DNA of 64,000 nucleotides from a virus, in the UHGV virus genome UHGV-0021788; one strand, given 5' to 3'. A program made the translations under genes and the position numbers. Under the pieces are notes generated by a model. It was not told where the DNA came from. It was given only the letters and a program-made list of their open reading frames with translations, and did not search any database. Below, piece by piece: positions 1 through 63,392 of the stretch. The stretch's first letter is position 1. Each line of letters begins with the position of its first letter.

Positions 1-1266
1 ATAAAAAAATATATAAATCTTACAGTAGATGGTGATAAGGCTCATGTAGACCAACCAATATTTCTATTTCAAAATGATAAAAATATTGATTTAATATTTA
101 CTATAAAAAATTTAAAATTTGATTTTGTTAGAAATATTCAAAAAGAAGAAGATTTAGTTGAATCAATTGGAGCTACTTATTTTAGAGTTAAAGTATTAAA
201 ACCTGATAAAGATGATGTAGATAAAGAATATACAACTGATTTATTTAAAATAAAAGATAATAAAATTATATTTAATATAGATGATACTTTTATATTTGAT
301 AAAAAAGATGAAGATGGGAATTTACCATCTTCAGAAAATGATAAAATAGGTATATATAAATTACAGATACAATTATATGATAACGCAAATGGTAGAATTA
401 CAATACCTGAAATTGAATTTGTTGTATTAGACCCTATATTTTTTGACCCAGAAACAGATGGAATTATAGGTGGTGACATCGGAGACTCAACCATAGGTAA
501 ACCAAGTGAAATAACAGGATTGGTTGATTGGGTAAAAGGTCAAATAATAAGTGCAGAAAGAATGAATGCAATTCATCGTTATCTTGAAAAACTTCAAAAT
601 CAAATAGATAACATTGATTTAAGCGATAAAGATATATATGCGAAAAATGTACATTATGAAAATGAACAGTTTACAAACGTACAAGATGCCTTAGATAGCT
701 TATTATATAAAGCTCCTCAAGTTAATTCATTATCTTCAAATATAGGTACTACTGTTGAAATGGGTACTATGCTTTCTAGTGTAACTTTTACATGGTCTTA
801 TAATAAATCAATAGTTTCGCAATCATTTGCAGGGGTAACATTGGATTCAAATATAAGAACTTACACTTATACAAAAGGAATATATAATAATGTTACTTTA
901 ACATTAACTGCAAATGATGGAAAAAATAATTGTAGTAGAAATATAAGTTTTACTTATGCAAATCGTATTTTTTATGGGGTATCTGATACAACTACTTATA
1001 ATGTTAACTTATTAAAATCATTATCAAATACATTAAGTAATAATAGAAATAGAAGTTTTACTGTTAATCCAATAAACAATCAACATATTATATATGCAAT
1101 ACCTAGTAGATTAGGTGAATGTAAATTTTCAGTTAATGGTTTTGAAGGTGGTTTTCAAAAAGTATCCACTATAAAATATACAAATTCACAAAATTACACA
1201 GAAGATTATTATATTTATAGGTCAGATAACCCGAATTTAGGAAAAACAACAGTTGTTGTAAATTAG
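1..1266 (+). CDS. 5'-truncated structural protein (tail fibre/baseplate-like). Frame 1 is open from the window edge to the stop at 1266.
   Basis: No stop in frame 1 from nt 1. Listed ORF 520..1266 is only its Met-initiated tail. The next gene's RBS follows. Confidence 0.55.
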   Translation: MKKYINLTVDGDKAHVDQPIFLFQNDKNIDLIFTIKNLKFDFVRNIQKEEDLVESIGATYFRVKVLKPDKDDVDKEYTTDLFKIKDNKIIFNIDDTFIFDKKDEDGNLPSSENDKIGIYKLQIQLYDNANGRITIPEIEFVVLDPIFFDPETDGIIGGDIGDSTIGKPSEITGLVDWVKGQIISAERMNAIHRYLEKLQNQIDNIDLSDKDIYAKNVHYENEQFTNVQDALDSLLYKAPQVNSLSSNIGTTVEMGTMLSSVTFTWSYNKSIVSQSFAGVTLDSNIRTYTYTKGIYNNVTLTLTANDGKNNCSRNISFTYANRIFYGVSDTTTYNVNLLKSLSNTLSNNRNRSFTVNPINNQHIIYAIPSRLGECKFSVNGFEGGFQKVSTIKYTNSQNYTEDYYIYRSDNPNLGKTTVVVN

Positions 1267-1434
1267 GAGGTGATAGTTAACAATGGCTATTGAATTAATT
1301 TCAACTATAATTCCTAAAAATAGTGGGAATTTTGCTATTGTTCTCACCTGTCAAATGATATAAAAGGTGGATTACATTCAGTAAAAACAATAGCTGAAAG
1401 AGATAATATACCTCTTGAAAGATTAGAAGAAGGT

Positions 1435-2382
1435 ATGTTATGTTATGTAAAAGATACGGAAAAGTATTATAATTGGAAAAATAGTATTTGGTCAGAATTT
1501 AGTGGAGGCGGTTCTGGCAATTTACTAATTTATAGAGTTGATAATTTTAACGATATGAATTCTATTAATACAAAAAATCTTGAATATGGAAGTTTATGTC
1601 ATGTATTAAATGATGAAAACTTAAGATATATGTATTATTATGGTAAAGAGGGTTGGCAATCAATCAGCCATAAATATAAAGTGTGGATAGGTAAAGAACC
1701 ACCAAATGATAAAAACTCTCTTTGGGTTGACACAAGAATGATGGAATTAGATTTATCAACAGGTCAAGAATCAAGTATACCTCAATCTGTTAAATATTTA
1801 ATAAATGTAATTAGTAATCTATCTAATGAAATTATCAATCTAACAGCAAAAGTAAACATATTAAATAATGAAATAGAAACTATTAAAAAGCAAATTGGTA
1901 GTGGTGGAATTATTACTGATAATAATATATATCTTACTACTGAAGACGATAAGATTATTACAACAGAAGATGGAATTCCTATTTTATATGAAGAAAGTAA
2001 AGGTAACAGTGGAGGTTCAGGCGGTGGTACTGGTGGTGAAGATAAACCTCCTATTGATAACAACACCTATATTGTTACTGAAGATGATAAAATCATTACT
2101 ACTGAAGATGGAATTCCTATTTTATATGAAGAAAGTAAAGGTGGTAGTGGAGGAGGAACTACTCCTAGTGTTGATAATAATACTTATATTACAACTGAAG
2201 ATGGTAAAGTTATTACAACAGAAGATGGAAAACTTATATTACATGAACAAAGTAAAGGCAACAGTGGTGGTACTACAGGAGATACAGATAAAACAGATAA
2301 AAATACTTATATAATTAGTGAAAATGGTAAAATAATAATTACCGAGAATGGTAAAGCTATTATACCAGAAAATAAAAAATAA
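1435..2382 (+). CDS. Tail fibre protein with a conserved phage-fibre N-terminal motif (KGGLHSV..EGMLCYV). The C-terminus has tandem ~40-aa repeats joined by Gly/Ser linkers. The true start is probably ATG 1283 in another frame (apparent frameshift near 1340).
   Basis: RBS AGGAGGTGA precedes ATG 1283. Frame 2 (MAIELISTIIPKNSGNFAIV) stops at 1361. Frame 1 is open from 1324 with no start codon before 1435. DNA and protein repeats lie at 1927-2150. Confidence 0.55.
   Translation: MLCYVKDTEKYYNWKNSIWSEFSGGGSGNLLIYRVDNFNDMNSINTKNLEYGSLCHVLNDENLRYMYYYGKEGWQSISHKYKVWIGKEPPNDKNSLWVDTRMMELDLSTGQESSIPQSVKYLINVISNLSNEIINLTAKVNILNNEIETIKKQIGSGGIITDNNIYLTTEDDKIITTEDGIPILYEESKGNSGGSGGGTGGEDKPPIDNNTYIVTEDDKIITTEDGIPILYEESKGGSGGGTTPSVDNNTYITTEDGKVITTEDGKLILHEQSKGNSGGTTGDTDKTDKNTYIISENGKIIITENGKAIIPENKK
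1927..2150 (+). repeat. In-frame tandem repeat (~140-nt unit, 2 near-identical copies plus degenerate copies to 2380) encoding a TEDDKIITTEDGIPILYEESKG module.
   Basis: 1927-2010 and 2068-2150 are near-identical. Gly/Ser-rich linkers lie between the units. Confidence 0.8.
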
Positions 2383-2396
2383 AGGAGTTGGATATA

Positions 2397-3670
2397 TTGG
2401 AAACTATTAAGAAAAGTGCATTTCAAGAAATTGGTATTCTTAATGATAATGATTATTTTGATATAGTTACTAATACAAATGTTAATAGAAGAATTAAATT
2501 TTCAGCAATGAAAGAAGCTATAAATAATAGTGTTAATTCTTATGTCGATGTTAAAGCAAAAAATGGAAAAATTTTCAGATTAACTGTTAATAATGAAGGG
2601 GAAATAATTTGTCAAAATGCTGAAGCATATACTGCTACTGCTCCAGAAAAAACTGAAAGTGGTAGATTTGCTGGTTTAATGATAAACATGATATATGGTG
2701 GTGGAAATAATAAAAATAATACTGCTTGTTCACATCACTTTATAGAATTATATAATCAAAGTACTAGTAGTATGGATTTAAATTTAAAAGGACTTTATTT
2801 ATCTGTTAAAAGTAATACAGGTGATTGGCAATCTCTTGCATTAGAGGGTATAATACCTTATCAACATTCATTCCTTGTAAGATGTAATCAAGTTTCTAAT
2901 CCTGTACTATTAGGTACTAGATGTAAAATAGATACATATGACCAAGAATGGAATATAGATTTAACTGATGTAGGATTTAGTGCTTATTTATCAATAGGAA
3001 CACCTACAACTGTTAATCCAGCTAATGCAGATGGTAATATGAATAAAGAAGTTGGATATATAGACTTAATGGGTGCTGGTGGAACACAAGAAACACAAGG
3101 AGTTAAAGCTTTTGAAACTGCCTATCCAATGTTGATGACTAAAGATATAGGTTGTAGAAGACTTGACTTTGCTGATACAGATAATAATCAAAAAAACTGT
3201 AGAGCAATAAATTGGAAAACTTGTGATGTAAGTGTCTATAAACCTAGAAGTGTATCAGATGGTAAATGGGACTTATACTTTAACAAAGCAAAACTAAAAT
3301 CTACAATGCCTAATCTAATAAATATGTGTTATGGACAAGATGGTTCTAAAACTAGAACATTTACTTTCCAAACTGTATTAACTGATGAAGGTTATATTAA
3401 ATGGAGAAAATACGGAGAATTAAAATGGAATAAAAAACCTACTACTAAAGAAATAATAACTCACTATGATTGTGATGCTACTTTACATAGAGTTTTTATT
3501 ACTGATTTACAACCTGGAATTTATGAATATCAATGTGGTTCTGAAGGTGCATGGAGTGATATAAGTACTTTTGAAGTAAGAAATTATGCACAAACTGCTG
3601 ATAAAAGTAATTTTGTACATAACGATATAAAAATGTTATGGACTACAGACCAACAAGCATGGACTAACAT
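2397..3670 (+). CDS. Exon 1 of a split purple-acid-phosphatase-like metallophosphatase. It has a ~370-aa N-terminal domain plus a PAP N-terminal-like domain. Probable start is TTG 2397; the listed ORF is 2388..3674.
   Basis: C-terminal ITHYDCDATLHRVFITDLQPGIYEYQCGSEGAWSDISTFEV matches the PAP N-domain pattern. The ORF stops at 3674 just before motif I. The catalytic half lies downstream past a HEG. RBS AGGAG is 9 nt before TTG 2397. Confidence 0.45.
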
Positions 3671-3845
3671 ATAGTCCCTATATTAAGTGATTAGTATAGT
3701 AAATCCTTTGAATTGCTGGTAAATCCTAAAGCCTTATAAACTACAACATGATTAGAAATAATGAGTGTGAATGTTACGAAAGTAGAAAAAATTATAAGGA
3801 TAACATATGGTTAAATCCTAAGTGTTATATACAATGGAAGCTCAG

Positions 3846-3930
3846 CAGGTAAGATTCTAAATTAAATTATTTTAAATACTTGACTTTTAATAAGATAAAT
3901 TGTATAATATAAGTAAAGTGAGGTGATAAA
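3846..3930 (+). repeat. 85-nt HEG promoter/leader block, duplicated at 5984-6069.
   Basis: CAGCAGGTAAGATTCTAAATTAAATTATTTTAAATACTTGACTTTTAATAAGATAAATTGTATAATATAAGTA.AGTGAGGTGATAAA is near-identical in both. Confidence 0.85.
3880..3908 (+). promoter_or_regulatory. Consensus sigma-A-type promoter for the intron-1 HEG.
   Basis: TTGACT, 17 nt, TATAAT. Followed by ATAAGTAAAG and RBS GAGGTGA. Confidence 0.75.
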
Positions 3931-4845
3931 ATGGGAAGAAAGAAAACACATGAGGAATTTATGAAAGAGTTTTATGAAAAAAATCCTAATGCTAAAAATA
4001 TAGAAATATTAGGAAAATATGAAGGTAGAAAAGTAAAAATTTTATGTATGTGTAAAATAGATAACTATAAATGGCATACAACTCCTAATGGATTATTGGG
4101 AAGTAAAAATATTAAACCAAATGGATGTCCGAAATGTGCTGGAAAAATAAAAAAAACACATAAACAATTTATAGAAGAAATGAATGAAATAAATCCAAAT
4201 ATTAAAATATTGGGGCGTTACATAGATGCTAAAACTAAGATAGAATGTGAATGTAAAATAGATGGATATAAATGGGAAGTTGAACCAACTAATTTGCTAC
4301 AGAAAAGAGGATGTCCAAAATGTGCTAATAAAATACCTAGAGAACATGATGATTTTGTTAAAGAATTAAATAACATCAATCCTAATATAAAAATAATAGG
4401 TAAATTTATATCTACTAGAACTAAAATAGAATGTGAATGTAAAATAGATGGATATAAATGGGAAGCTGAGCCAAGACATCTTTTAGGAAATCATGGATGT
4501 CCAAAATGTAATGATTCTATTGGAGAAAAAATAACTTATAATATATTAAATAAATTAAATATAAAAAATATAAGACAATACAAATTTAAAGATTGTAAAT
4601 TTTATAAATGTCTTCCTTTTGATTTTTATTTGCCACAATATAATTGTTGTATTGAAATTGATGGTAAGCAACATGAGAATATAGTCAAATGGTTTGGTGG
4701 GTTAGATGGTTTTATAGATAGAAAAATTAGAGATACGGTTAAAGATATATATTGTAAGAATAATGGAATAAAATTAATTAGAATTACATATAAAGATATA
4801 AATGAAATAGAAAAAATAATTTGTCAAGAACTTAATTTAAATTAA
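3931..4845 (+). CDS. Intron-encoded homing endonuclease, family A. Three tandem ~60-aa zinc-ribbon modules (C-C...GCPKC) plus a C-terminal Vsr-like/DUF559 PD-(D/E)xK (EDxHD-type) nuclease core.
   Basis: Repeats THEEF..NPNIKILG..C.CKIDGYKW..GCPKC x3. C-terminus has FDFYLP...IEIDGKQHE...RDTVKD..GIKLIRI. Own promoter and RBS. Paralog of 6070..6984. Confidence 0.6.
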   Translation: MGRKKTHEEFMKEFYEKNPNAKNIEILGKYEGRKVKILCMCKIDNYKWHTTPNGLLGSKNIKPNGCPKCAGKIKKTHKQFIEEMNEINPNIKILGRYIDAKTKIECECKIDGYKWEVEPTNLLQKRGCPKCANKIPREHDDFVKELNNINPNIKIIGKFISTRTKIECECKIDGYKWEAEPRHLLGNHGCPKCNDSIGEKITYNILNKLNIKNIRQYKFKDCKFYKCLPFDFYLPQYNCCIEIDGKQHENIVKWFGGLDGFIDRKIRDTVKDIYCKNNGIKLIRITYKDINEIEKIICQELNLN

Positions 4846-5005
4846 TTTAATATGAATAAACTTCAACGACTAAGTATCCTAGTAGTCTAGGTAGTGGAGG
4901 ATACCCTTATTGGGTAATGATATAGTCTGCTCTCATGGGAAACCATGAGCAGTTTTTATGTAAAAAAACGGATAGAATAGTAACGATATTCTATTGAACA
5001 TAAGG

Positions 5006-5844
5006 TGTTGAGGAATCACAAGCTACTAATGTTTGTTTCCAAAATATAAGTGAATGGGAAAAAGGTACTGATTTTGATTTTCATTTAAATACAGGCGACA
5101 TTTCGCAAAATGCAAACAGAAGTTTTGAGTGGAGATACCACTATAAATATGCAGATGACCTAATAAGAACTATGTGTCATCAAATAACTTGTGGGAATAA
5201 TGACTTAATAGATAAGAAATATTCAGATGCATTTACATGGTACATGACACCAGAAGATTATTTCTTACCAGACCAAATAGATAGTGGTTCAGGTGTTATG
5301 GTTAATAATCCTAATAAATGTACTTTTAATTCATGTCATAGTTTTGACTTAGGATATGTACATTTTGTTTGTTTAAATAGTAATAAAGATTATTCTATGT
5401 TTAATGAAAATGAAGGTGAAAAAATAGATGATTGGATACAAAGAGAATGTGCATGGTTAGATGCAGATTTAACTAGAGATGAATCTAATGCTAAAACAAG
5501 ATGGGTAATATGTTATATGCATTACGCACCTTTTACAGTATCTAGACCTGACTGGATACAAAGATTTGTTCCTGTATTTGAAAAACATAGAGTACATTTA
5601 GTATTATGTGGTCACAACCATACAAACTCAAGAAGTATTGTAGTTAGAAGTGGTTATGATGGAGACCCAAATAAAGCAAGCTATGACCCTAAAGGTCAAA
5701 AAACAGCTGAAGAAGAAACAGCTTTAGGACATGGTACTATAAATCATAATGAAGATTTAAAAAATGGTACTCTTTACCTAATGATTAATGCAACTGGATT
5801 CAAGAATACAGGTAAAGAAAGTATACAAAATCCTTATCCTTGGT
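5006..5844 (+). CDS. Exon 2 of the split metallophosphatase, the catalytic core. Frame 3 is open from 5004; the listed Met-ORF is 5172..5846.
   Basis: GDISQNAN (GDLSY-like), VICYMHYAP, LVLCGHNHT (GHxH) and LYLMINATG align to PAP motifs. In-frame sequence without an ATG extends upstream to 5004. Confidence 0.5.
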
Positions 5845-6017
5845 AAAAAAATATTGCCACTTTACATAGTAATATGTAATGACAAACTCATTGAATTGCT
5901 GGGACGACCTTAGAGCCTTAATGCCACAATATAAGAGAAATCATTATATGAAGGTTTAAAAAGTTTAAGGATTGGTTAATCAGCAGGTAAGATTCTAAAT
6001 TAAATTATTTTAAATAC

Positions 6018-6046
6018 TTGACTTTTAATAAGATAAATTGTATAAT
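6018..6046 (+). promoter_or_regulatory. Consensus promoter for the intron-2 HEG.
   Basis: TTGACT, 17 nt, TATAAT. The 85-nt block is near-identical to 3846-3930. Confidence 0.75.
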
Positions 6047-6069
6047 ATAAGTAGAGTGAGGTGATAAAT

Positions 6070-6984
6070 ATGGGTAAAAAGAAAACACATGAGGAATTTA
6101 TGAAAGAGTTTTATGAAAAAAATCCTAATGCTAAAAATATAGAAATATTAGGAAAATATGAAGGAAACAATAAACCTATTAAATGTCGTTGCAGAATAGA
6201 TGAATACGAATGGTATCCAAGACCTTGTCATTTATTGGGAAATAAAAATGCTAAACCTACTGGTTGTCCTAAGTGTAGTGGAAAAGCAAAAAGAACAAAT
6301 GAAGAGTTTATTAAGGAAATATATATAATAAACCCTAATATAGAAATACTTAGTGAATATAGTGGAGTTAGTAATTTAATAGATTGTCGTTGTAAAATAG
6401 ATGATTATGAGTGGTCATCAATTGCTGATAATTTATTACATGGACATGGTTGTCCTAAATGTGGAGGACAAATAAAAAAGGAACATGAAGAGTTTGTAAA
6501 AGAAATGGAAGAAATAAATCCCAATATAGAAATACTTGGGGAATACAATGGAGTTCATGAATATATTTTATGTGGATGTAAAATATGTAATCATGAATGG
6601 ACAACTCGTCCTCATGAATTATTAAATGAATACGGATGTCCTTCTTGTAATATATCTCGAGGAGAATTTAAAATAAAAACTTTATTAGAAAAATATCAAA
6701 AACAATATAAATATCAATATAAATTTAAAGATTGTAAATTTTATAATGAATTACCTTTTGATTTTTATTTACCTGATTATAATATTGCAATAGAATATGA
6801 TGGAGAACAGCATTATAAAATAATTAAACAATTTGGTGGAATAAATAGATTAATAGATAGTAAAATAAGGGATACTGTTAAAACTGAATATTGTAAAAAT
6901 AATAACATAAAACTTATAAGAATACCTTATTGGAATTATAAAGATATAGAAAATATACTTATAAAAGAACTTAATTTAAAATAA
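6070..6984 (+). CDS. Intron-encoded homing endonuclease, family A paralog (zinc-ribbon x3 plus Vsr-like/DUF559 nuclease). Start ATG 6070; the listed GTG 6061 is unlikely.
   Basis: MGKKKTHEEFMKEFYEKNPNAKNIEILGKYEG is identical to the N-terminus of the 3931 paralog. C-terminus has DFYLPDYNIAIEYDGEQH...RDTVK...IKLIRI. Confidence 0.6.
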   Translation: MGKKKTHEEFMKEFYEKNPNAKNIEILGKYEGNNKPIKCRCRIDEYEWYPRPCHLLGNKNAKPTGCPKCSGKAKRTNEEFIKEIYIINPNIEILSEYSGVSNLIDCRCKIDDYEWSSIADNLLHGHGCPKCGGQIKKEHEEFVKEMEEINPNIEILGEYNGVHEYILCGCKICNHEWTTRPHELLNEYGCPSCNISRGEFKIKTLLEKYQKQYKYQYKFKDCKFYNELPFDFYLPDYNIAIEYDGEQHYKIIKQFGGINRLIDSKIRDTVKTEYCKNNNIKLIRIPYWNYKDIENILIKELNLK

Positions 6985-7140
6985 TTTAACATGAATAAAC
7001 TTCAACGACTATCCTGTAATGGAGTAGGGTTCAAGCGAACTCGAAGTAGTGAGCATCTTAATAAAGATGAAGATATAGTCTAGTCTCATGGGAAACCATG
7101 AGCAGTTTTTGTGCGTAAAAACAAAACGGGTTAGGTGTAG

Positions 7141-7376
7141 CGAACCTAATTGAATATAACGGGTATGGATTAAGAACTTCACATCCAACACAACCAACTT
7201 ATGCAACATTAACTATAGGTTGGGATAAGATAGAATATAAATGCTATAAGATAATGAACACATTAAGTAAAGATAGAAACGGAAATACAATAGTAGTGCC
7301 TTATGGTAGTCAAACTAAAGAATTGTATGATAGTTGTACTCTTAATTGGAGAGCAAAAGGTCAAACACTAATATAG
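7141..7376 (+). CDS. Exon 3 (C-terminus) of the split metallophosphatase.
   Basis: Frame 3 is open 7119-7376. NLIEYNGYGLRTSHPTQPTYATLTIGW..DRNGNTIV aligns to the PAP C-terminal FGHG...W.RN.DG. A U at 5844 and G at 7140 give an in-frame join (..NPYPW-S-NLIEY..). Confidence 0.45.
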
Positions 7377-7389
7377 GTGGTGATAGTTT

Positions 7390-10065
7390 ATGCCTAATAG
7401 AATTTGGAGTGAAGAAAAAAAAGATTGGATAATAGTCGATGAAACAAATTTAGCTACAAATATAGAAGTAATGGATATCAAAGAGTACTATCATAAAAAG
7501 AAAACAGAAGAAGAAACAAAAGATGATGAATTTTTAAGTGTTGAAAAATGCTTAGAACAAATAGGGGATAAAATAAATAATGGTGATATAGGTGCTATAG
7601 GTGAAATAAAAGATAAAGTACAAGATTTGGATGACAGAGTAACCTATATTGAAGAAAACGGTGGTGGTGGAGGAGGTGGCTCTTCCATGCCTACCGTTAA
7701 ACTTCTTAGTGATAGTTATTATGCTATACCAACCGATGGAGAATTAAATATTTATTATAACTTTACTTCTCCAAATATAGGATTTGGTACAGCATTTATA
7801 AGTTTAGACTATGGAACAGCTGAACAGTTATCAGTTGCACAAGGTCGTAATTTTTATACTGTAAAAAACTTAGAAAAAGGTGAACATAGACTAGATATAT
7901 ATGTAACTGATATAACAGGTTTATTCTCGAATACAGTTACAGTAACAATAGTTGTTGGTGGACTTGAATTAACTTCTAATTTTGACGATAGTACGGATTT
8001 ATCCTTAGAGGATTATATTAGAATAAGATATGTTATCTCAACAATATCTTCTAAGCCAATTGAAGTGTCTATTGAAATAGATGGTAAACTAACAAAAGCA
8101 GAAGGTATAATTGGTCAAAATATATTGGAAGTTGGACAGTTTAGTTCATTAGGGGTTCATACAGTTAAAATATCAGCCGTCAGTGGTGATTTAGTATCAA
8201 ACCAATTAGTATTTAATTTAGTTGTAGCCGATTCAGAAAATCTTTATGTATCTACTACTTTTCCTGATAATTATACTATACAAGTAGGTAAAAACCTACA
8301 AATTGATTATAGAAATAGTATGGTAAATCAAAATAGATTTATTACTCATATGCTTATAAATGGTACTGAAGTAGATACGGTAACATCTTATTCAGGATAT
8401 AACTATTGGAACGTTGGGTCTAATTTAGAGATAGGTTTATATACTTTAACATTATATTCTACTACATCCGATGGTGCATATACATCAAATTATTTAACAT
8501 GGGTAATAGATGTTGTTTCAGAAGACTATGTTCCCTTTAAGGTTGTAACAGATGGGTTATTATGTAATTTTGATGCTAATGGTAATCAACAAACATCTTC
8601 TAGTAGAAACATATGGAAAGACGATAGTGGAAACGACGTTAAATGTGAATTGTTTAATTTCAACTATTCTACAAATGGTTGGATAGATAACAGTTTAGTA
8701 TTTAATGGTAAAACATATGCTAAAATAGATTTTTCTCCTTTTAGTGATAATATCAAAAATGGTATGACAATTGATATGTTATTTAAAGTAAAAAATGTTG
8801 GTGATATAGACGGAAAAGTATTATGGTGTAAAAATCCAATTACACCTTACCAAGGTTTTTATATAAATACTTATGAGGCAAATTGTCGTTCTGCCAACTC
8901 AAGAATAGTTAGTAACCAATTTCAAGATGACACATGGACTAGAATAACATGGGTTATTAATAGAGAAGATTTGACAATGATAGCTTATGTAAATGGTATC
9001 ATAACGAAACCTGTATATATAACAGATACAGAAAACTTTAGAATGGAAAAAGATATTTATCTAGGTGTATCATTTGACGAAGTAGATAACAATTTAGATA
9101 ATGATGGTAATCCAATACCTCACTATGCATCTTGTTCTATAAAAACATTTAGAATATATGATAGAGCATTAACTGATGAAGAAATATTACAAAATCATAT
9201 TGCCGATATAAAAGATAAAGAAAAACAATTGGAAATAAGAGAAAAGAACTATGGTGATAGTACAATGCCTATCATAAAATTTGAAGGTAATGTAGAAGGT
9301 ATGGATGGTAGTATCTATAAATTATTAACAATAGATTATAATGACCCATTAGACCCATCTAAACGTTTTAGACAAGAACAATGTAGAGTAAAATGGCAAG
9401 GTACTTCTTCACTAGAATATCCAGTAAAAAACTATACAATAGAACTTAGAAGTGGTGGTAACGTTTGGGAATATGCTCCTAAAGACAATTGGCTACCAGA
9501 AAAAAGATATACTTTGAAGGCTTCGTTTATGGATAGTTCTACATATAATAACGTTGGTTCTTCTAAATTAATTTATGATTACTTTAGAAAATCTAATATG
9601 TTTTATCCACAAGAAATTAAAAATCCTAAAACTAGAGCAGTAATAGATGGTTTCCCAGTTAGACTTTATATTAATGGGGAATCAAAAGGTATATATATGT
9701 TCAATATAGATAGATATGCTGAAAACAATTATGGATTTTCTGGGGAATCATCAATTGTATCTTATGAAATAGCTGTCAACTCTGAAAGTGGTGCTGGTGC
9801 TTTCGCATCAGATGCTTGGTCAAGTATACGTTCTGAATTTGAAATGAGATATCATTATGCTGGAGATGAAAGTGTTGTATGTGAAACTGTTATGGAAAAT
9901 GGTGTACCAACTACTGTTTTAAAAGCAGGTTTTCATTCAGAATTACAAAATTTAGTTTCATGGGTATTAAATTCTACTATAGAAGAGTTTAGAAGTGAAT
10001 TAAAAGAACATTTTGAATTAAACTTTTTAATAGATTATTATCTATGGGTTCTATGTTTGGGTTAA
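7390..10065 (+). CDS. Tail fibre/receptor-binding protein with a Gly linker, Ig-like beta domains and a laminin-G/concanavalin-like lectin domain. Possibly exon 1 of a larger gene fused to 11689..15081.
   Basis: RBS AGGTGGTGA. LamG-like segment (VFNGKTYAKIDF...WTRITWVINREDLTMIAYVNG...IKTFRIYDRALTDEEI). The stop at 10063 lies right at the start of the intron-like array. Confidence 0.6.
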   Translation: MPNRIWSEEKKDWIIVDETNLATNIEVMDIKEYYHKKKTEEETKDDEFLSVEKCLEQIGDKINNGDIGAIGEIKDKVQDLDDRVTYIEENGGGGGGGSSMPTVKLLSDSYYAIPTDGELNIYYNFTSPNIGFGTAFISLDYGTAEQLSVAQGRNFYTVKNLEKGEHRLDIYVTDITGLFSNTVTVTIVVGGLELTSNFDDSTDLSLEDYIRIRYVISTISSKPIEVSIEIDGKLTKAEGIIGQNILEVGQFSSLGVHTVKISAVSGDLVSNQLVFNLVVADSENLYVSTTFPDNYTIQVGKNLQIDYRNSMVNQNRFITHMLINGTEVDTVTSYSGYNYWNVGSNLEIGLYTLTLYSTTSDGAYTSNYLTWVIDVVSEDYVPFKVVTDGLLCNFDANGNQQTSSSRNIWKDDSGNDVKCELFNFNYSTNGWIDNSLVFNGKTYAKIDFSPFSDNIKNGMTIDMLFKVKNVGDIDGKVLWCKNPITPYQGFYINTYEANCRSANSRIVSNQFQDDTWTRITWVINREDLTMIAYVNGIITKPVYITDTENFRMEKDIYLGVSFDEVDNNLDNDGNPIPHYASCSIKTFRIYDRALTDEEILQNHIADIKDKEKQLEIREKNYGDSTMPIIKFEGNVEGMDGSIYKLLTIDYNDPLDPSKRFRQEQCRVKWQGTSSLEYPVKNYTIELRSGGNVWEYAPKDNWLPEKRYTLKASFMDSSTYNNVGSSKLIYDYFRKSNMFYPQEIKNPKTRAVIDGFPVRLYINGESKGIYMFNIDRYAENNYGFSGESSIVSYEIAVNSESGAGAFASDAWSSIRSEFEMRYHYAGDESVVCETVMENGVPTTVLKAGFHSELQNLVSWVLNSTIEEFRSELKEHFELNFLIDYYLWVLCLG

Positions 10066-10145
10066 TACAATGGCTCAAGTAAAACTTTCTCTGATTAATG
10101 GCGAACACCCTAGTAGAAAAGGGCAACGCTCAAGAAGATTTATTT
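10053..10145 (+). repeat. Direct repeat R (exon-end plus intron 5' segment), copy 1. Copy 2 is at 11123-11218.
   Basis: TTGGGTT-AAT..GGCTCAAGTA.AA.T.TCTCTGATTAATGGCGAACACCCTAGTAGAAAAGGGCAACGCTCA.GAAGATTTA is ~90% identical between the copies. Confidence 0.8.
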
Positions 10146-10154
10146 AACAATATT

Positions 10155-10183
10155 TTGACTTTTAATAAAATAAGTAGTATAAT
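10155..10183 (+). promoter_or_regulatory. Consensus promoter for the GIY-YIG HEG.
   Basis: TTGACT, 17 nt, TATAAT, then RBS GGGGTGA. Confidence 0.75.
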
Positions 10184-10204
10184 ATAAATGAAAGGGGTGA
10201 TACT

Positions 10205-10915
10205 ATGAGTGAAAATAAATATTATGTTTATGAATGGATTAGATTAGACACAAATGAACCATTTTATGTAGGTAAAGGTTGTGGAGATAGATGGAGGAAT
10301 TTATATAGGGATTACAATCCTCGTTTTATGAATATAATAAATAAAGTACCAGTAGCAGTATCAATATTAATAAATAATTTAACAGAAAAGGAATCTTTTG
10401 ATTTTGAATGTTATTATATATGGTTATATAAAGATATTATAGGATATGATATATGCAATATAAATGAAGGTGGGGAAGGTCAAAGTTTATGTGGTGAAGC
10501 TAATGGTTTTTATGGTAAACATCATTCAGAAGAAACTAAAAAATTATTAAGTGAACAACATAAAGGCATGACTTATTCTCAAGAGACAAAAAATAAATTG
10601 AGTGCTATGAGAAAAGGTGAAGGGAACGCTATGTGGGGACGTAGAGGAGAATTATCTCCGCATTGGGGTAAAAAATATTCAGAAGAAAGAAAAAATAATA
10701 TTAGTAAAGCAATGGGTACTTCTGTAAAGTGTATTGAATTAAATATAGAATTTAATAGTCTTAATAAAGCAGAAAAATATATGATTAAAGAATATGATAT
10801 TAAATTTTCTCATAAAACTTTAAAAGCTACGATAGAAAAAAGAAGAAAAAAAGATTGGTATGGAGAAATAGAAATTAATGGAGAATTAATTAAACTTCAT
10901 TGGGAATATTGTTAA
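10205..10915 (+). CDS. GIY-YIG homing endonuclease (I-TevI/Seg-like) with NUMOD3 repeats and a C-terminal DNA-binding domain.
   Basis: YYVYEWIRLDTNEPFYVGKG..R..N GIY-YIG motif. Repeated GKHHSEETKKLLS / SQETKNKLSA NUMOD3-like units. Confidence 0.75.
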   Translation: MSENKYYVYEWIRLDTNEPFYVGKGCGDRWRNLYRDYNPRFMNIINKVPVAVSILINNLTEKESFDFECYYIWLYKDIIGYDICNINEGGEGQSLCGEANGFYGKHHSEETKKLLSEQHKGMTYSQETKNKLSAMRKGEGNAMWGRRGELSPHWGKKYSEERKNNISKAMGTSVKCIELNIEFNSLNKAEKYMIKEYDIKFSHKTLKATIEKRRKKDWYGEIEINGELIKLHWEYC

Positions 10916-11670
10916 ATAAAATCACTTGCAACGACTGAGTGAGAAAGGCTTAAAGATTAATTCTTTAAGTAAGCAACAGTCTGAACTTGCGAATATAATT
11001 TCTACAAAAAACAAATCGCAGAAGAGGGGTCATCGGTAATCAGACCGATTAAAGAAGAACCCCTCTCGCCAACTTAGGTTGGTCAGTAGCCGAAAGGTGA
11101 AAGTAACAGAATGCTAGTAGACAACTTGGGTTTAATGATTTTGGCTCAAGTATAAAATTCTCTCTGATTAATGGCGAACACCCTAGTAGAAAAGGGCAAC
11201 GCTCAGGAAGATTTATAAAATCACCTGCAACGACTGAGTGAGAGAACACTTATTTAAGTGAAGCAACAGTCTGAACTGCAAATATAATTTCTACAATAAC
11301 AAATTGCAGAAGGAAGTTGAAGTGCTTCCTCGCCAACTCAAGTTGGTCAGTAACCGAAAGGTGAAAGTAACAGAATTGAAAAATATGGTTTTAACAACTT
11401 TCGGTATGAATGCTGAAGGTAACGTAATTTGGTATCCATCCTTTGACATAGGAGGATGTAAAACTCTCTTTAATTGACTTGGAAGTCCTGAAGAGGACGA
11501 CAGGGGGCAAGTTTAAATACAGCCTGAACGACTAAACAAGAGAGCATTATCATATTGATAATGATGTGATAGTCTGAACTCTAGTAATAACTTGTTTTAA
11601 TGAAACTAGAGAAGGAAATCCGAAGTGTTTTCCTCGCCATAAAATATTATGGTCAGTAGCTTAGGAATAA

Positions 11671-14600
11671 GTGAAAGTAACAGAATGGTATGATGCAGAC
11701 TCAGAGTTGGGTTTAACCAACGATGGTGAGTTAAGATACGGTTCAGGTATCGACACTTTAACAGATAATTTCAATACTTCTGATTCTAAATTATGGACTA
11801 AATTACTAGAAGCTTTCCCAGATGAAGTACAAGCAAGATATATCTATATGAGAAGTAATGGATTTATGACTTATGAAAATATTATAAAATATTATGAAAA
11901 TATAGCAGATACAATTGGTCAAACATTCTATAATGAAGATGCAAGACTTAAATATATTAATGAAGATAATAAATCATTTATTTATATGTGTAATGGTTCA
12001 AGACTTGAACATACAAAAAGATGGTTAAGCGAACGTATTGTATATATGGATAGTAAATTTAACTATGGTGATTTCTTATTATCTTCTACTATACGTTCAA
12101 ATGTTTCCGGTGAGGTATCATTAAAAGTAAAAACATATTCACCTCAATGGGTAGAAATATCTTTCTCAGATAGTGCTACAGGTACAACAAGACAATGGTG
12201 TAGTAAAGATAAATGGTATACATTTATAAATACCATTGAAAATGCCGTCGACAACAATATCACCATTAGAGGTGTAACTAATATAATGTATTTACAAGGA
12301 TTAGAAAATTTAAATGTATCTTCTTTACTTGTATCAAATGCAAAAGGTTTATGTGAAATTGATATTCATGGTTCTAAACGTATTCAAAGATTGGAACTAG
12401 GTAACAATATCATGTTACAAAAACTTAATTGTAAAGATTGTATTAATTTAGGTATTGATGATAACTATAAAGTTGTTAACTTGGAAAAATGTATCAACTT
12501 AAAATATCTTGATTTATCTAATACTATGATAGGTACACTTCAATTAAATAAAGATGGTGGTGCATTAGAATATTTAGATTTATCTGAAACAGAATTAACT
12601 TATTTAACTTGTAACCATCAAGAATATTTACCTGAAATAAAATTAGATGGTTGTAAAAATCTATCATCTGTTACTATTAATGGTTGTAATGCATTAACAA
12701 GATTGAGTTTACCTAATACTAAATTAGCTGAATTTACTGTAACAGATTGTAATAGTTTAAATTACCTTGATATATCATATACTGGTTATTTAGTAAAATT
12801 AGATTTAACAGGTTGTAGTAGTTTAACTACTTTAATAATGTCAGGTATAGCAAATAATAAATTTACTGAATTAGATGCGAGAACATTAACAAAATTAACA
12901 ACATTAGATGTGTCTAAATGTTATTTCTTAAATAATATAAGATTTGCTAATGGATATAATGCTTTAACATCTGTAAACTTCCAACAAAGTGGGATTAAGA
13001 CTTTACAGTTTGGAAATAATGAAAAACCTCCTTATTTAGATTTATCTCCATTTAATTTAACAGAAGTTAATTTCTATAACTGTACTGAAATAGAATATAT
13101 TAAAAATATAAAATTATATGCTACAAAATCCATAGAACCTTTTTATAATTGTGTTAATTTACACACTATAGAAGGTACTATAAGTTTAACTGATGATTTA
13201 GGAAGAAGTTTTTATAATTGTAAAAAACTAGTTAATTTACCTACTTTAGATTTAAGTAGAGTTAAAACAGCTTCGGATTCCTTTATGCATTGTGAGTCTT
13301 TAACTTATGACCAATTACTAGAAATTTTAGGTAAGATGAATAATTGTCAAAGTTTTTATAGAACTTTCCAAAACTGTTTAGCTATGGAACATGACGGTTG
13401 GGAAAAAGCTTTATTCGATAAGATACCAAAAGCAACTTATTTTTATTGGACATTCTCAGATACTCCAATAAGCGGACAATTAGAGCAAGGAATCTTTGAT
13501 AGTTTATTAGATTTACAAACTGTAGATGGATTATTTAGCGGTGGTAAGGCAAAAGGTTATATTCCAGCCAATCTATTCAAATATAATACAAAATTACAAA
13601 ATCTTTGGAATCTATTTAATGGATGTAAAGAATTAGAAACTGCTACTAATATAGTAAACATGTTTACCACTACAGTAGATTTAAGAGGTATAGAGGGATT
13701 ATTTAGTGGTTGTACTAATGCTTTTATGAAACTAAGTGATACATGGTTTGCAAATTGTCCAGAGCTACAAAATATGGATTATGCTTTTGCAAATTGTACA
13801 AACTTAATTGGTTCTATAGCTGAAAATCCTCATATGATAAAAAATAAATCTAAATTAACAACAGCAGAACATACCTTCCTTAATTGTACAGGCATAAGTG
13901 GTGATTTACCTGATGATTATTTTGTTGGGTGTACTGCTTTACAAGAAATACAAGGACATTTTCAAGGATGTACTGGTCTAACAGGAACTCCTAAAACTGA
14001 ATCATGGATAGATTGTGAAAATATAACTAATGCTTCATATTTATATGCAGGATGTACTGGTTTAGGTGGTATAGCAGGTGCTACTCAAGAAATACCTAAA
14101 GATTTCTATAAAAGAAAATATAGACTTATAGATATATCTGGTATGTGGCAAGGTTGTAATCAACTACAATTTTCTCTAATGCCATTAAAAGAAGATAAGT
14201 TAGGTGAGGATGGAGCTGTTATAGAAAAAGGGGACGACCCTTGGTTTGTTGATTGTAGACAGTTAGCGAAAATAAATTATCTATTTGATGGTTGTAGTAA
14301 TTTATCATCTGTAATACCTTCTAGGTTATTTGAAGTTTGGGATGAAAAAGGCGAAGTAATGGATACACTTATAACAGAAGCTAAAGCGGTATTTAAAAAT
14401 TGTCAATTACTTACAGATGAAATACCAGAAAATCTATTTGAAAAATTTATTAAAGTTAGAGATTTAACTGAATTTTTCTATCAATGTAGAAGTTTAACTG
14501 GTGGTATTCCTGATACATTATTTTCTAATTGTTATTCTTTAGTTTATGCTAATAGAATGTTTATGCGTTGTGGTAAATTAGGAAAATATGCAGACCAAGT

Positions 14601-15081
14601 AACAGAAGAAGAGCCATATTTCTGTAATGAAGAACTATTTTGGAACTGTCCTAACCTATTGGAAATATCTCAATTATTCCATATGTATGATGGATGGGGA
14701 ACTTCTCTAAGAGGAGACATACCTCCATTGTTATTTAGAGCTAATCCTAAATTACAAAATATAAATAATGCCTTTGCTGGTTGTAGTCTTTTAACTGGTG
14801 GGTTGGATGGGCAACTATTTGTTAGAAATGCTAAATTAAAAACTGCTAGAGAAACTTTCCACGGTTGCTCAGGTTTAAATGGAGAAATGAGTGGAGCGTT
14901 ATTTACCTCTACTAATAATCCACTTTTAACAGATTTCTATCAAACCTTTCAAAATTGTAAAAATATACAAGGTACTGCACCTTCATTATGGACACAATTC
15001 TCTAATGCAAATGGTGGAGGATGTTTTAATGGATGTACTAAATTAAGTAATTATGCAGATATACCTTCACAATGGAAATAA
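11671..15081 (+). CDS. Large adhesin/receptor-binding protein with classical LRRs and many BspA-type (LRR_5) F.GC..L.G repeats. Listed GTG start 11671 is doubtful; it may be exon 2 joined to 7390..10062 from 11689.
   Basis: LDLSNTMIGTLQL..LDLSETELTYL LRRs. More than 12 FxGCxxLxG/IPxxLF units. Weak RBS; the N-terminus overlaps ribozyme core C. Confidence 0.6.
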   Translation: MKVTEWYDADSELGLTNDGELRYGSGIDTLTDNFNTSDSKLWTKLLEAFPDEVQARYIYMRSNGFMTYENIIKYYENIADTIGQTFYNEDARLKYINEDNKSFIYMCNGSRLEHTKRWLSERIVYMDSKFNYGDFLLSSTIRSNVSGEVSLKVKTYSPQWVEISFSDSATGTTRQWCSKDKWYTFINTIENAVDNNITIRGVTNIMYLQGLENLNVSSLLVSNAKGLCEIDIHGSKRIQRLELGNNIMLQKLNCKDCINLGIDDNYKVVNLEKCINLKYLDLSNTMIGTLQLNKDGGALEYLDLSETELTYLTCNHQEYLPEIKLDGCKNLSSVTINGCNALTRLSLPNTKLAEFTVTDCNSLNYLDISYTGYLVKLDLTGCSSLTTLIMSGIANNKFTELDARTLTKLTTLDVSKCYFLNNIRFANGYNALTSVNFQQSGIKTLQFGNNEKPPYLDLSPFNLTEVNFYNCTEIEYIKNIKLYATKSIEPFYNCVNLHTIEGTISLTDDLGRSFYNCKKLVNLPTLDLSRVKTASDSFMHCESLTYDQLLEILGKMNNCQSFYRTFQNCLAMEHDGWEKALFDKIPKATYFYWTFSDTPISGQLEQGIFDSLLDLQTVDGLFSGGKAKGYIPANLFKYNTKLQNLWNLFNGCKELETATNIVNMFTTTVDLRGIEGLFSGCTNAFMKLSDTWFANCPELQNMDYAFANCTNLIGSIAENPHMIKNKSKLTTAEHTFLNCTGISGDLPDDYFVGCTALQEIQGHFQGCTGLTGTPKTESWIDCENITNASYLYAGCTGLGGIAGATQEIPKDFYKRKYRLIDISGMWQGCNQLQFSLMPLKEDKLGEDGAVIEKGDDPWFVDCRQLAKINYLFDGCSNLSSVIPSRLFEVWDEKGEVMDTLITEAKAVFKNCQLLTDEIPENLFEKFIKVRDLTEFFYQCRSLTGGIPDTLFSNCYSLVYANRMFMRCGKLGKYADQVTEEEPYFCNEELFWNCPNLLEISQLFHMYDGWGTSLRGDIPPLLFRANPKLQNINNAFAGCSLLTGGLDGQLFVRNAKLKTARETFHGCSGLNGEMSGALFTSTNNPLLTDFYQTFQNCKNIQGTAPSLWTQFSNANGGGCFNGCTKLSNYADIPSQWK

Positions 15082-46242: not shown

Positions 46243-47775
46243 TTATTTATTTGCTTTTCTATATTCATATTCTTCTTTATTTAATTCTTCTACTTCTTCT
46301 TCATTAAGTAAATGATATTCATCACACCATATTTCAAACTCTCCATTTTGTACCCATTTTGTTTTAGTTATTGTATTTCCATCTTTGTCTATTGTTTCAA
46401 CTTCTTTTTTTTCTTTTTTTGCCTTTTGAAACATATGGTATACATTGATTACACTAAATGCTTTAAATGGTTGTGCTTCATAAATTCCTTCACCAACTTT
46501 TATTTCTATGTTTTTTCCAGTACTTATATTAAAAATCCATGCTTTTTTATTCTTAAATTTGGTTATAACATCAATAACGATACAAGTTGATGAATCATAA
46601 TCTTCAAAATAATAATTACATTCTCCAGTCATTTCAAGATTAATTTTAACCTTATCTATTGATGGCATTTCGTTATCTTCTATATTCAACATTAATTCAT
46701 TACATAATTCTAATGCTTTTTCTACTTTATATTGTTTATATTTATCTTCTTTACTTTTTTCAGTTGCATATTTTTCTATTATTTCTTTAGGATATGGTAG
46801 GTCAGCTTTATTAAATGATACTTCACCTTTCTTAGATTTTAATTTTTTACTCATTATTTTTTCATATAAATCTATAATATCTAATAATTTTTGTGATTTA
46901 CCAAATTCATCGAAGAAATCTATTGCTATTAATATATTAAGTTGTCTTGAGTTTATAGATGTTTTATCATTTAAATCAATAAGTAAATCCATAAAACTAT
47001 TATATTTATTATCTTTTAACATATATAATTCTTGTGATACTTGTTCATTCATATATTTTATACTAGCCATACCTTTATATATAGAATTACTTTCTTTATC
47101 CATAAAATATTCAGCTTTAGAATATCTAAATTTAGGTGGTAATAATTTTATATCAAAATAACTTAATTCTTTTATTAGTCTATTTGTTCTAGTTGAATCA
47201 TCGGAATAAATAGATAGGGCAACTGTATAATATTCAAGAGGATAATGTGATTTTAAAAATGCTCCATACAGACTATCATAGGCATAAGAAAGTGAATGTG
47301 AAGCATTGAATGAATATTTTGAAGCATCATTAACTACTTGCCATGTTTCTTCAAATCCATCAATTGAACCAACTTTATCTATCCAACCTTTTTTTAATTT
47401 TTTTTCTAACTCTATTAATTCTTTTTCTTTAAATTTTTTCTTTGATATTTTTTTAATAATTCCATATGTTTCAGGCTCAGGAATACCTAACCATATTAAA
47501 TATTTCATAATAGATTCTTGATACATCAAATAATGATAACTATCTTCTAACAAATTATCCAATTCTTTTACACCTGTTGTATATGGTTTTCTTTCTATAA
47601 AATTATCTAATAAAGAAGCAAATCCTGGTCTAATTGAAGCAACAAACGCACTCATTTCAGCTACACTAGAAACTTTATATCTTGATGCTAAATTAGTTGC
47701 AAAATCTGAATCAGATTGATTTATTGTACAAGTTATTTTATCTTCATATATTTTAAATGTTTTTTCATCTAACAT
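46243..47775 (-). CDS. dnaE: DNA polymerase III alpha subunit (DnaE-type), C-terminal exon. It may extend a few codons upstream of the Met.
   Basis: FNASHSLSYAYDSLYGAFLKSHYP matches DnaE FNKSH..Y....AYLK.HYP. Confidence 0.7.
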   Translation of the reverse strand: MLDEKTFKIYEDKITCTINQSDSDFATNLASRYKVSSVAEMSAFVASIRPGFASLLDNFIERKPYTTGVKELDNLLEDSYHYLMYQESIMKYLIWLGIPEPETYGIIKKISKKKFKEKELIELEKKLKKGWIDKVGSIDGFEETWQVVNDASKYSFNASHSLSYAYDSLYGAFLKSHYPLEYYTVALSIYSDDSTRTNRLIKELSYFDIKLLPPKFRYSKAEYFMDKESNSIYKGMASIKYMNEQVSQELYMLKDNKYNSFMDLLIDLNDKTSINSRQLNILIAIDFFDEFGKSQKLLDIIDLYEKIMSKKLKSKKGEVSFNKADLPYPKEIIEKYATEKSKEDKYKQYKVEKALELCNELMLNIEDNEMPSIDKVKINLEMTGECNYYFEDYDSSTCIVIDVITKFKNKKAWIFNISTGKNIEIKVGEGIYEAQPFKAFSVINVYHMFQKAKKEKKEVETIDKDGNTITKTKWVQNGEFEIWCDEYHLLNEEEVEELNKEEYEYRKANK

Positions 47776-48197
47776 TTTTTCTAATTCTTTAATAGTCGGT
47801 ATTTTAATATTAGCTAATTCACAAGTTTTTCTTATTAATGTCCAAACTGTAACCGCAAGATACGTTAATACCGTTCCTTTCGGAATACTTTAACACCCAT
47901 TTAAGGGTCGGACTAGACTATACCTTTATCTTCGACATTACTCGTTAAGATATGCCTATTATAGTCGTTGAAGGTTTCCCATTTTAAAGGGATTTCCCTG
48001 CTGATTATCCATTCATTCGCCCTTAGCGCCTTTTACAAGGCTTTTATTTCAGCTTAGGTAATCCTTATAATTTTTTCTGCTTTCGCAACCATCAAGCTTA
48101 ATGTCACCATTTACTTTGTGGTTTATAAGGCTTTAGGAACTCCCAGCAATTTAAGGCATCATAATCTACATAATTTCTTATATAGACGACTATTAAA
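47776..48197 (-). ncRNA. HEG-less group I intron splitting dnaE. It is homologous to +strand introns 1 and 2. Boundaries are approximate.
   Basis: On the - strand: AAUUGCUGGGAGUUCCUAAAGCCUUAUAAAC block (= intron 1 block). GCGAAAGCAGAAAAAAUUAUAAGGAUUA. P7 CAACGACUAUAAU and GGUAUAGUCUAGUCC. UUCCGAAAGGAA GNRA hairpin. Locally higher GC. Confidence 0.6.
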
Positions 48198-63233: not shown

Positions 63234-63392
63234 CTACTTCTGTAGCAGGTTTCAATGCTTGTTACAAGCTTCCCTATTCAACGTGTTCTCTTTCGTTTTA
63301 AACTACTTGAGTTTTTTACAACACTCCAAGGGCGTAAATTCGGACTTGAACGTTCCTACATATTAATTTGTTTTTATTTCTTATTTACTTAA

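Follow-up and report, generated by a model that had tools for sequence, protein, structure and literature searches.

The window analysed here is a 64,000-nt stretch of the virus genome UHGV-0021788, and its positions 2397-7376 very probably make up one metallophosphatase gene into which two paralogous mobile group I introns are inserted, each with its own homing endonuclease gene. The exon/intron boundaries, a covarying ribozyme fold, Rfam membership of relatives that lack an open reading frame (ORF), presence/absence polymorphism, a co-conversion-like tract at one insertion site (site A) and the modelled endonuclease fold were all shown by the analysis. A preliminary description, made from the letters of the window, had proposed such a gene in three segments split by two homologous introns. 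Collinear homologues, intron-less alleles, covariation of the core and Rfam matches to ORF-less relatives bear this out, and the same evidence supports its view that the gene would be expressed only after splicing.

Exons and predicted splice junctions of the host gene

The ORF list of the window contains three open frames of the same phase and strand (2388-3674, 5004-5846 and 7119-7376), and each of the two gaps between them holds one ORF of 304 aa. Exon 1 (2397-3664, plus strand) encodes an N-terminal domain, a lamin-tail-like domain, a purple-acid-phosphatase N domain and metal motif I (WTTDQQ). It was delimited from the ORF list, the Pfam matches, the ribosome-binding site (RBS), the gene call in the related contig L182, and the junctions in homologues and in contig L001. 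Pfam PF16656 (Pur_ac_phosph_N) matched exon 1 at 32-32.6 bits (curated cutoff 30), and the match of PF00932 (LTD) was below threshold. Exon 2 (5006-5844, plus strand) holds the catalytic core with the motifs GDISQN, CGNND and CGHNH, as assigned by homologue alignment and by PF00149 (Metallophos; 30.3-33.9 bits, curated cutoff 21.5). The latter match begins only at profile position 27, and exon 2 therefore lacks the first metal motif. Both assignments agree with the earlier placement of the N domain in the first ORF and of the catalytic half in the second frame. Exon 3 (7162-7376, plus strand), defined by homologue alignment and the junction sequence, supplies the C-terminal 71 residues (..W-YGLRTSHPTQPTY..) and the stop codon; it had no Pfam match. 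As TTDQQ, GDISQN, CGNND and CGHNH are all kept in the homologue alignment and both Pfam cutoffs are exceeded, the product is predicted to be a metallophosphatase of the calcineurin-like, purple-acid-phosphatase type.

The ORF 2388-3674, previously taken as the first segment, is indeed an open frame, but the last exon base is C3664, within a Thr codon (AC|U), and the exon does not run on to the TAG at 3672-3674. Its start codon is most likely TTG 2397 rather than the beginning of the open frame at 2388, because AAGGAG (2383-2388) lies 8 nt before this codon and the L182 gene call agrees. From TTG 2397 the spliced product would have 773 aa. When a provisional version of the spliced protein was used as a query, 335 relatives were found, many of them uninterrupted, about 770 aa long and 71-78% identical. 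The spliced product is collinear with the uninterrupted homologues over 100% of its length, with zero gaps at either junction.

At the first junction (site A), close homologues read DQQAWTVEE(A/S)QATNV, so exon 1 ends at C3664 and exon 2 begins at U5006; L001, which is 96.6% identical to the window, is uninterrupted at site A and reads GCATGGACAGTCGAAGAA. The predicted ligated sequence is GCATGGAC|TGTTGAGGAA (3664|5006). At the second junction (site D), all homologues have NPYPW-WYG. U5844 opens a Trp codon, and its joining to G7162 yields UGG U|GG UAU (W-W-Y) and the protein sequence NPYPW-WYGLR. At site D the sequence of six uninterrupted alleles is CCTTGGT|GGTATG (CCTTGGTGGTATG), and in L182, which is 98.5% identical and comes from another sample, the position corresponding to 5844 is joined directly to 7162 while intron 1 is kept. 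The predicted ligated junction, TCCTTGGT|GGTATGGATT (5844|7162), is thus also present as genomic DNA in L182-like strains. The exon 2-exon 3 join proposed previously from U5844 and G7140 (..NPYPW-S-NLIEYNGYG..), in which U5844 would meet C7141, was 21 nt off: a 3' splice site at G7140 would add seven residues found in no homologue, and this base sits in the loop of the P9.2 helix (7131-7136 with 7144-7149). The P9.2 arms of intron 2 and those of intron 1 (4972-4979 with 4987-4994) are wholly different in sequence, and both are perfectly paired.

Homologue alignment and the natural intron-less alleles therefore place intron 1 at 3665-5005 (1341 nt) and intron 2 at 5845-7161 (1317 nt), both on the plus strand, and precise excision of both gives back the host reading frame and sequence. 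Helix mapping and covariation agree with these limits, as do, for intron 1, the homologous 3' ends and the presence of the same intron in L182 and in a second contig, L183. The terminal G (G5005 or G7161) is fixed because all family 3' ends share the tail GAAYAUAA(A)SG|, in which these bases occupy homologous positions in 13 family members. An intein explanation was rejected, as the gaps have in-frame stop codons and fold as RNA.

Selection on the exons was assessed between the window and contig L130, both of which have the intron at site A. In exons 1, 2 and 3, dN/dS was 0.26, 0.16 and 0.32, respectively (dS 0.7-1.0), which argues that the downstream exons are translated and that all three exons are under purifying selection.

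Ribozyme core and endonuclease cassettes

The P, Q, R and S elements of a group I intron were recognised by eye in both gaps (P, UGAAUUGCUGG; Q, AAUCAGCAGG; R, CUUCAACGACUA; S, GAUAUAGUC). As had been noticed before, both gaps contain the two P7 strands, TTCAACGACTA (R element, 5' strand) and GATATAGTC (S element, 3' strand), and a P9 hairpin with a GAAA loop (CTCATGGGAAACCATGAG). The conserved core, consisting of P4 (P/Q), P7 (R/S), P3, P5, P6, P8 and P9, is complete in both introns and in canonical order. In intron 1 the helices are P1 3661-3664/3674-3677 (GGAC/GUCC), P2 3678-3682/3695-3699, P3 3704-3709/4896-4901, P4 3714-3717/3844-3847, P5 3724-3726/3836-3838, P6 3848-3857/4854-4862, P7 4868-4872/4923-4927, P8 4902-4907/4911-4916 and P9 4929-4938/4943-4953. 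Those of intron 2 are P1 5841-5844/5856-5859 (UGGU/GCCA), P2 5862-5867/5874-5879, P3 5887-5892/7048-7053, P4 5897-5900/5982-5985, P5 5907-5909/5974-5976, P6 5986-5995/6993-7001, P7 7007-7011/7076-7080, P8 7054-7059/7064-7069 and P9 7082-7091/7096-7106; P9.2 lies in each intron at the positions given above. All helices map to window coordinates, with one U.U and one G.G as the only mismatches.

Covariation was examined in an alignment of ten introns, including both window copies, after the ORF cassette had been cut from the P6 loop of the ORF-bearing members. RNAalifold recovered P3, P4, P5, P6, P8 and P9, and 20 of 36 pairs showed compensatory double changes. Once the P7 pseudoknot was included, pairing reached 98.0% of cells, compared with 37-46% when the 3' partners were slid by 1-3 columns. 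Double changes were found in 21 pairs, as against 2-5 in the slid controls, and none of 500 shuffles reached the observed values. Read from the alignment, P2 and both P9 extensions vary on both strands among members; for P2, the strands are CUAUA/UAUAG (intron 1), UUACAU/AUGUAA (intron 2) and CUAUG/CAUAG (contig L007). Hairpins between P7 and the 3' strand of P3 are visible by eye, such as CCUAG..CUAGG at about 4879-4892 in intron 1. Peripheral helices P7.1/P7.2 are a mark of the IA2 subgroup. This subgroup is known to be heterogeneous (PMC11878797).

Relatives without an ORF matched the Rfam group I model RF00028 over its full length; the curated cutoff of this model is 50 bits. The ORF-less intron at another position of the gene in L182 (site C) scored 105.5 bits (E 1.3e-28), twice the cutoff, and its guide sequence, P2 and core resemble those of intron 2 of the window. 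The 367-nt ORF-less intron of L007, at site B', scored 40.8 bits (E 3.5e-9). The R..S pattern was discarded as a definition of the family, as it occurs at more than 120 IMG/VR loci and is too generic. Members of the family resemble mosaics of exchanged P3-P5, P7-P8 and P9 modules. In both introns the GAAA hairpin of P9 is followed by CAGUUUUU and looks like a terminator (4932-4959 and 7085-7112), which might attenuate transcription of the intron or end the endonuclease transcript.

Endonuclease gene 1 (3931-4845, plus strand) and endonuclease gene 2 (6070-6984, plus strand) each encode a protein of 304 aa with three zinc-finger repeats and a C-terminal EDxHD/Vsr-like nuclease domain. By BLASTP the two proteins are 57% identical; their first 33 residues are nearly identical and their zinc-finger repeats have diverged. 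Both matched phrog_559 (E 1e-72 to 1e-75), and the matching PHROGs families are annotated as homing, intron-encoded or 'HNH' endonucleases. Pfam detected three DUF4379/CapR zinc-finger repeats in both ORFs and no NUMOD, so that the NUMOD/HTH module of the EDxHD family was not found. In the structural model the repeats form three helix-sheet-knuckle units with a CPKC zinc knuckle, and the protein family has more than 2,300 relatives and repeats that are modular. Searches of the PDB sequences by phmmer with the full-length endonuclease or its C-terminal domain gave no match. Fold comparison assigns the modelled catalytic domain a Vsr-like (EDxHD) fold, and the 'HNH' label in PHROGs is not supported by this predicted fold. 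Residues E199, D231, H248 and D268 do not vary among 34 homologues, and the D and H are 17 apart, as are D196 and H213 in I-Bth0305I (PMC3239194). Compared with I-Bth0305I and the EDxHD family (PDB 3R3P; PMC3239194), the window endonucleases have no similarity detectable by phmmer, have three helix/beta-sheet/CPKC zinc-knuckle repeats (DUF4379, CapR) in place of NUMOD/HTH, and are encoded in P6 and not in P5. A protein that links three zinc-finger repeats to an EDxHD nuclease may be worth considering as a programmable DNA-binding scaffold.

In both introns the ORF cassette lies in the terminal loop of P6, upstream of P7 (AUUCUAAAUUAA[...]UAAUUUAAUAUGAAU), as the preliminary description had it. 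Each gene is preceded on the plus strand by a promoter-like TTGACT-17-TATAAT and the RBS GAGGTGA, located at 3880-3908 and 3920-3926 (together 3880-3926) for endonuclease 1 and at 6018-6046 and 6058-6064 (6018-6064) for endonuclease 2. The hexamers, identical in the two introns, match the consensus at 11 of 12 positions in the promoter scan. The earlier statement that the genes are equipped with promoters draws no support from hexamer counts, since DNA this rich in AT holds no excess of such hexamers (36 found, 40 expected). These putative promoters are supported instead by their conservation, as they occur at the same position before the ORF in contigs L130, L006, L004, L155 and L160.

From these features we propose that each transcribed intron would fold into a group I core, P3 to P9, with P1 formed between the exon end and the internal guide sequence. 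The intron would then excise itself by two guanosine-initiated transesterifications, joining 3664 to 5006 and 5844 to 7162 and restoring the reading frame. The P6 terminal loop of each intron holds the sigma-70-like promoter, RBS and endonuclease gene as one cassette, and the endonucleases would cut intron-less alleles of co-infecting relatives, whose repair would copy the intron in (homing).

Intron mobility, the splice-site base and alternative explanations

The two gaps are paralogous and agree at 73% of positions across about 1160 nt. A block of some 180 nt in which they hardly differ (3842-4026 and 5980-6165) covers the Q element, the P6 5' strand, the promoter, the RBS and the first 33 codons, and the remainder is about 70% identical. 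The block suggests recent gene conversion between the intron copies.

Across homologues the host gene is interrupted at no fewer than seven positions: after TTD, AWT|V (site A), NTG|D (site B), after NANRS (site B'), TCG|NND (site C), CG|HNH (site E) and PW|WY (site D). The intron at site E looks different from the family found at the other sites. Relatives have up to three or four introns per gene, with mini-exons of 99-123 nt; among them are distant homologues (about 35% identity) with three to four introns on viral contigs of 150-200 kb (L157 7375-8599, and also L155, L158, L159 and L161). L157 packs three ORF-less introns into 1.2 kb, with exons of 123 and 99 nt between them; in the first of these introns an A.C mismatch takes the place of the P7 pair to which guanosine normally binds.

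Occupancy also differs among close relatives. Sites A and D are occupied in the window and sites A and C in L182; in L001, within the sequence available, site A is empty and site B holds an intron. This distribution offers a natural system in which ongoing homing and site switching could be followed within one gene. The window and L001 differ at 3 positions in the 400 nt upstream of site A and at 5 in the first 30 nt downstream, all five being synonymous third-position changes (+0, +3, +6, +15 and +21). Such a tract is the pattern expected of co-conversion or of target-site immunity. Together with the presence/absence polymorphism, it lends indirect support to cleavage of the intron-less allele close to the insertion site. 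The guide sequence GUCC fits both TTD| (GGAU|, in L157-L159) and AWT (GGAC|, in the window), two positions 15 nt apart, which suggests that an intron may have made an ectopic move between these look-alike sites. Direct evidence for ectopic jumps directed by a guide sequence is lacking in the field (PMC3984707).

The base before the 5' splice site differs between the two introns. Intron 2 has a canonical P1, UGGU|...GCCA, in which U5844 pairs with G5856 (U.G). Intron 1 has GGAC|U...GUCC, in which C3664 pairs with G3674. A T on both sides of intron 1 leaves a one-base ambiguity in the window itself. L130 and contig L005 have the same intron at the same site with the same C-G, and there the only alternative would be A(-1) with a terminal A, so C(-1) with a terminal G is the only sensible reading. 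Boundaries with U(-1) (3660/5005, 3670/5006 and 3672/5005) were considered for intron 1 and rejected, as they break the frame, alter the protein length relative to every homologue or end in a base other than G, and have no P1 support. C3664 cannot vary, being the middle base of a Thr codon that is almost invariant. At sites B (NTG|D: GGAG|UAAC..GCUCC) and B' (GAAG|UAAC..GCUUCC), G(-1) is likewise forced, and a U.G pair is found one base further into the intron.

We regard it as a tentative possibility, and hardly a probable one, that relatives of one intron, with EDxHD-type endonucleases, occupy at least six codon positions of one gene family, mostly at metal-binding motifs, with a different-looking intron at a seventh, that the three of six sites forcing a non-U base (AC|N Thr, G|AY Asp and AG|U Ser) would splice efficiently with C-G or G-C in place of the almost universal U.G wobble, that the shared guide GUCC would record a guide-directed ectopic jump, and that the family would still be moving among strains 96-98% identical. 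If non-U 5' splice sites were really used, a rule for predicting group I splice sites would be relaxed.

Several points weigh against one gene with two spliced mobile introns. Intron 1 has the C-G pair of C3664 and G3674 in place of the conserved U.G wobble, a substitution that slows the first step in model ribozymes, so that its splicing may be inefficient or depend on help. No copy of intron 2 at site D was seen outside this window. On the spliced protein the Pfam Metallophos match begins at residue 436, past junction 1, with no extension across that junction, so that reconstitution of the domain there is argued from homologue collinearity. The dN/dS argument would be weaker if the introns had been acquired recently in each lineage. 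Self-splicing is something we infer from sequence, as we do endonuclease activity and specificity and use of the promoters. Finally, Rfam gave zero group I matches on the window introns, whether the whole window was scanned at the gathering threshold or 3500-7500 at E<=10. The Rfam miss is attributed to the ORF of about 1 kb in P6 together with filter losses, and it carries no weight as absence, because the same scan missed an ORF-less DnaE intron of 65.3 bits elsewhere in the window and ORF-less relatives score up to 105.5. The group I fold and covariance search advised at the outset was positive for the core fold and covariation of both introns and for ORF-less relatives, but not for an Rfam match on the window copies themselves.

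The irregular P1 of intron 1 allows an alternative in which intron 2 splices normally and intron 1 is impaired, so that mostly a 425-aa N-terminal fragment (exon 1 plus three read-through codons) would be made and the full enzyme would be scarce or cofactor-dependent. We consider this unlikely. The pairing GGAC|U..GUCC, for which no U(-1) alternative fits both the terminal G and the frame, and the recurrence of the C-G in L130 and L005 speak for it. However, the C(-1) arrangement persists with intact downstream exons in lineages about 25% diverged at the protein level, dN/dS is lower in exon 2 than in exon 1, every other core element is intact, and the related introns at B and B' also lack U(-1) in otherwise intact genes.

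Far less probable still is a dead pseudogene with two free-standing endonuclease cassette insertions, its ORFs being unrelated remnants or separately translated proteins and no splicing taking place. A stop codon comes after each exon, a start codon is lacking at the 5' ends of exons 2 and 3 and the window copies have no Rfam match, all of which would fit a pseudogene. It would not explain why the insertions are complete covarying group I cores with guides complementary to the upstream exon ends, why removal up to the terminal G gives back the frame and precisely the sequence found in intron-less alleles, why the exons appear to be under purifying selection, or why ORF-less family members pass the Rfam threshold. 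An assembly artefact is just as improbable. The near-identical block of about 180 nt common to both introns could mislead short-read assemblers into a repeat-induced chimera, and the restriction of the site D intron to this window would fit, but the independent contigs L182 and L183, from other samples, reproduce window 1-5194 including intron 1 at 98.5% identity, and a chimera would not give an intron 2 whose guide GCCA pairs with its own upstream exon UGGU and whose ends are exact to the base. One metallophosphatase gene with two mobile introns thus remains the explanation that we prefer.

Comparison with known phage introns and genomic context

The window introns resemble the group I introns of other phages (T4 td, nrdB and sunY, Twort orf142, those of Bastillevirinae and of crAss-like Delta/Zeta phages) in their P/Q/R/S core, P3-P7 pseudoknot and terminal G. 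They also share with them an ORF looped from a peripheral helix (here P6), an internal promoter for this ORF, insertion at conserved catalytic-motif codons, several related introns per gene and presence/absence at the strain level (PMC3984707, PMC11878797, PMC7886860). In contrast to those introns, the host gene here is a purple-acid-phosphatase-like metallophosphatase of a late module and not a nucleotide-metabolism, replication, terminase or capsid gene; window intron 1 has no U.G wobble, and relatives occupy at least six sites in one gene family.

Multiple introns in one phage gene are well documented. Three introns and exon skipping have been described in the tail-tube gene orf142 of Twort (Landthaler and Shub 1999, as cited in PMC11878797), introns occur in the capsid and tail genes of cluster J mycobacteriophages (PMC3706429), and a genome of a crAss-like Zeta phage can hold as many as 14 introns, with a capsid gene divided into five pieces (PMC7886860). 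With the three to four introns in relatives of the present gene, these cases indicate that calling two paralogous introns per gene 'unusual' was an overstatement. Genes with several introns and intron-dense phage genomes are already established, and the window locus adds to a well-known kind of phage element.

Relatives of the host gene in deposited genomes are only 26-35% identical, over 70-93% of the length. They include the crAss002 and other crAss-like 'phosphatase' genes, genes of Bacteroides phages and gp352 of Bacillus phage G, all with the same domain architecture and family. These deposited genes appear as single uninterrupted matches, unlike the split gene of the window. Gene callers split such a gene into fragments, and products of 425 aa, 271 aa and similar sizes are found in public collections. 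Introns of this kind are missed by the default Rfam scan, and DnaE and CotH-like genes in the window are affected likewise.

Megablast of the locus against deposited phages gave no close relative. The window has a G+C content of about 28%. Its DnaE resembles those of Clostridioides and Clostridium phages most closely, with about 54% identity to those of phiCD211, phiCDIF1296T and c-st, a similarity that suggests a large phage of a Clostridia host as the source. The host gene lies between tail-like genes and a giant CotH-like gene, in a late tail-like module; the label 'structural gene' used in the preliminary description is not established.

The DnaE-type DNA polymerase gene is itself split, by an ORF-less group I intron on the minus strand (47895-48212) that was missed by the whole-window scan and matched the full RF00028 model at 65.3 bits (E 2e-16) when scanned alone. 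It separates the ORFs 48198-51173 and 46243-47775, which correspond to positions 45-406 and 630-1066 of phrog_405. Within the former ORF (minus strand), residues of about 383-494 match unrelated PHROGs, one of them annotated as anaerobic ribonucleotide reductase, and this internal stretch of the N-terminal DnaE fragment may be an intein.

Directly downstream of the metallophosphatase gene, the CotH-like gene (7390-15081; phrog_9915) is interrupted at 10063-11680 on the plus strand by a group I-like unit of another kind, repeated about three times in tandem. A 236-aa NUMOD3 ORF (10205-10915) is carried by the first unit, a 22-aa mini-exon lies at 11379-11444, and the units gave weak RF00028 matches of 28.8 and 23 bits. 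L182 is without about 1.3 kb in this gene: window position 10062 aligns to 9689 of L182, and 11379 to 9708. Immediately upstream of the metallophosphatase gene, the ORF 1435-2382 (315 aa) contains several tandem units of about 40 aa (..Y(I/V)TTEDG(I/K)(P/V)IL(Y/H)E(E/Q)SKG(N/G)SGG..), seen in the translation and in blastn self-matches, and it may encode a fibre-like protein. A RAGATH-18 RNA motif was found at 63270-63332 on the minus strand (68.2 bits, gathering cutoff 44.9).

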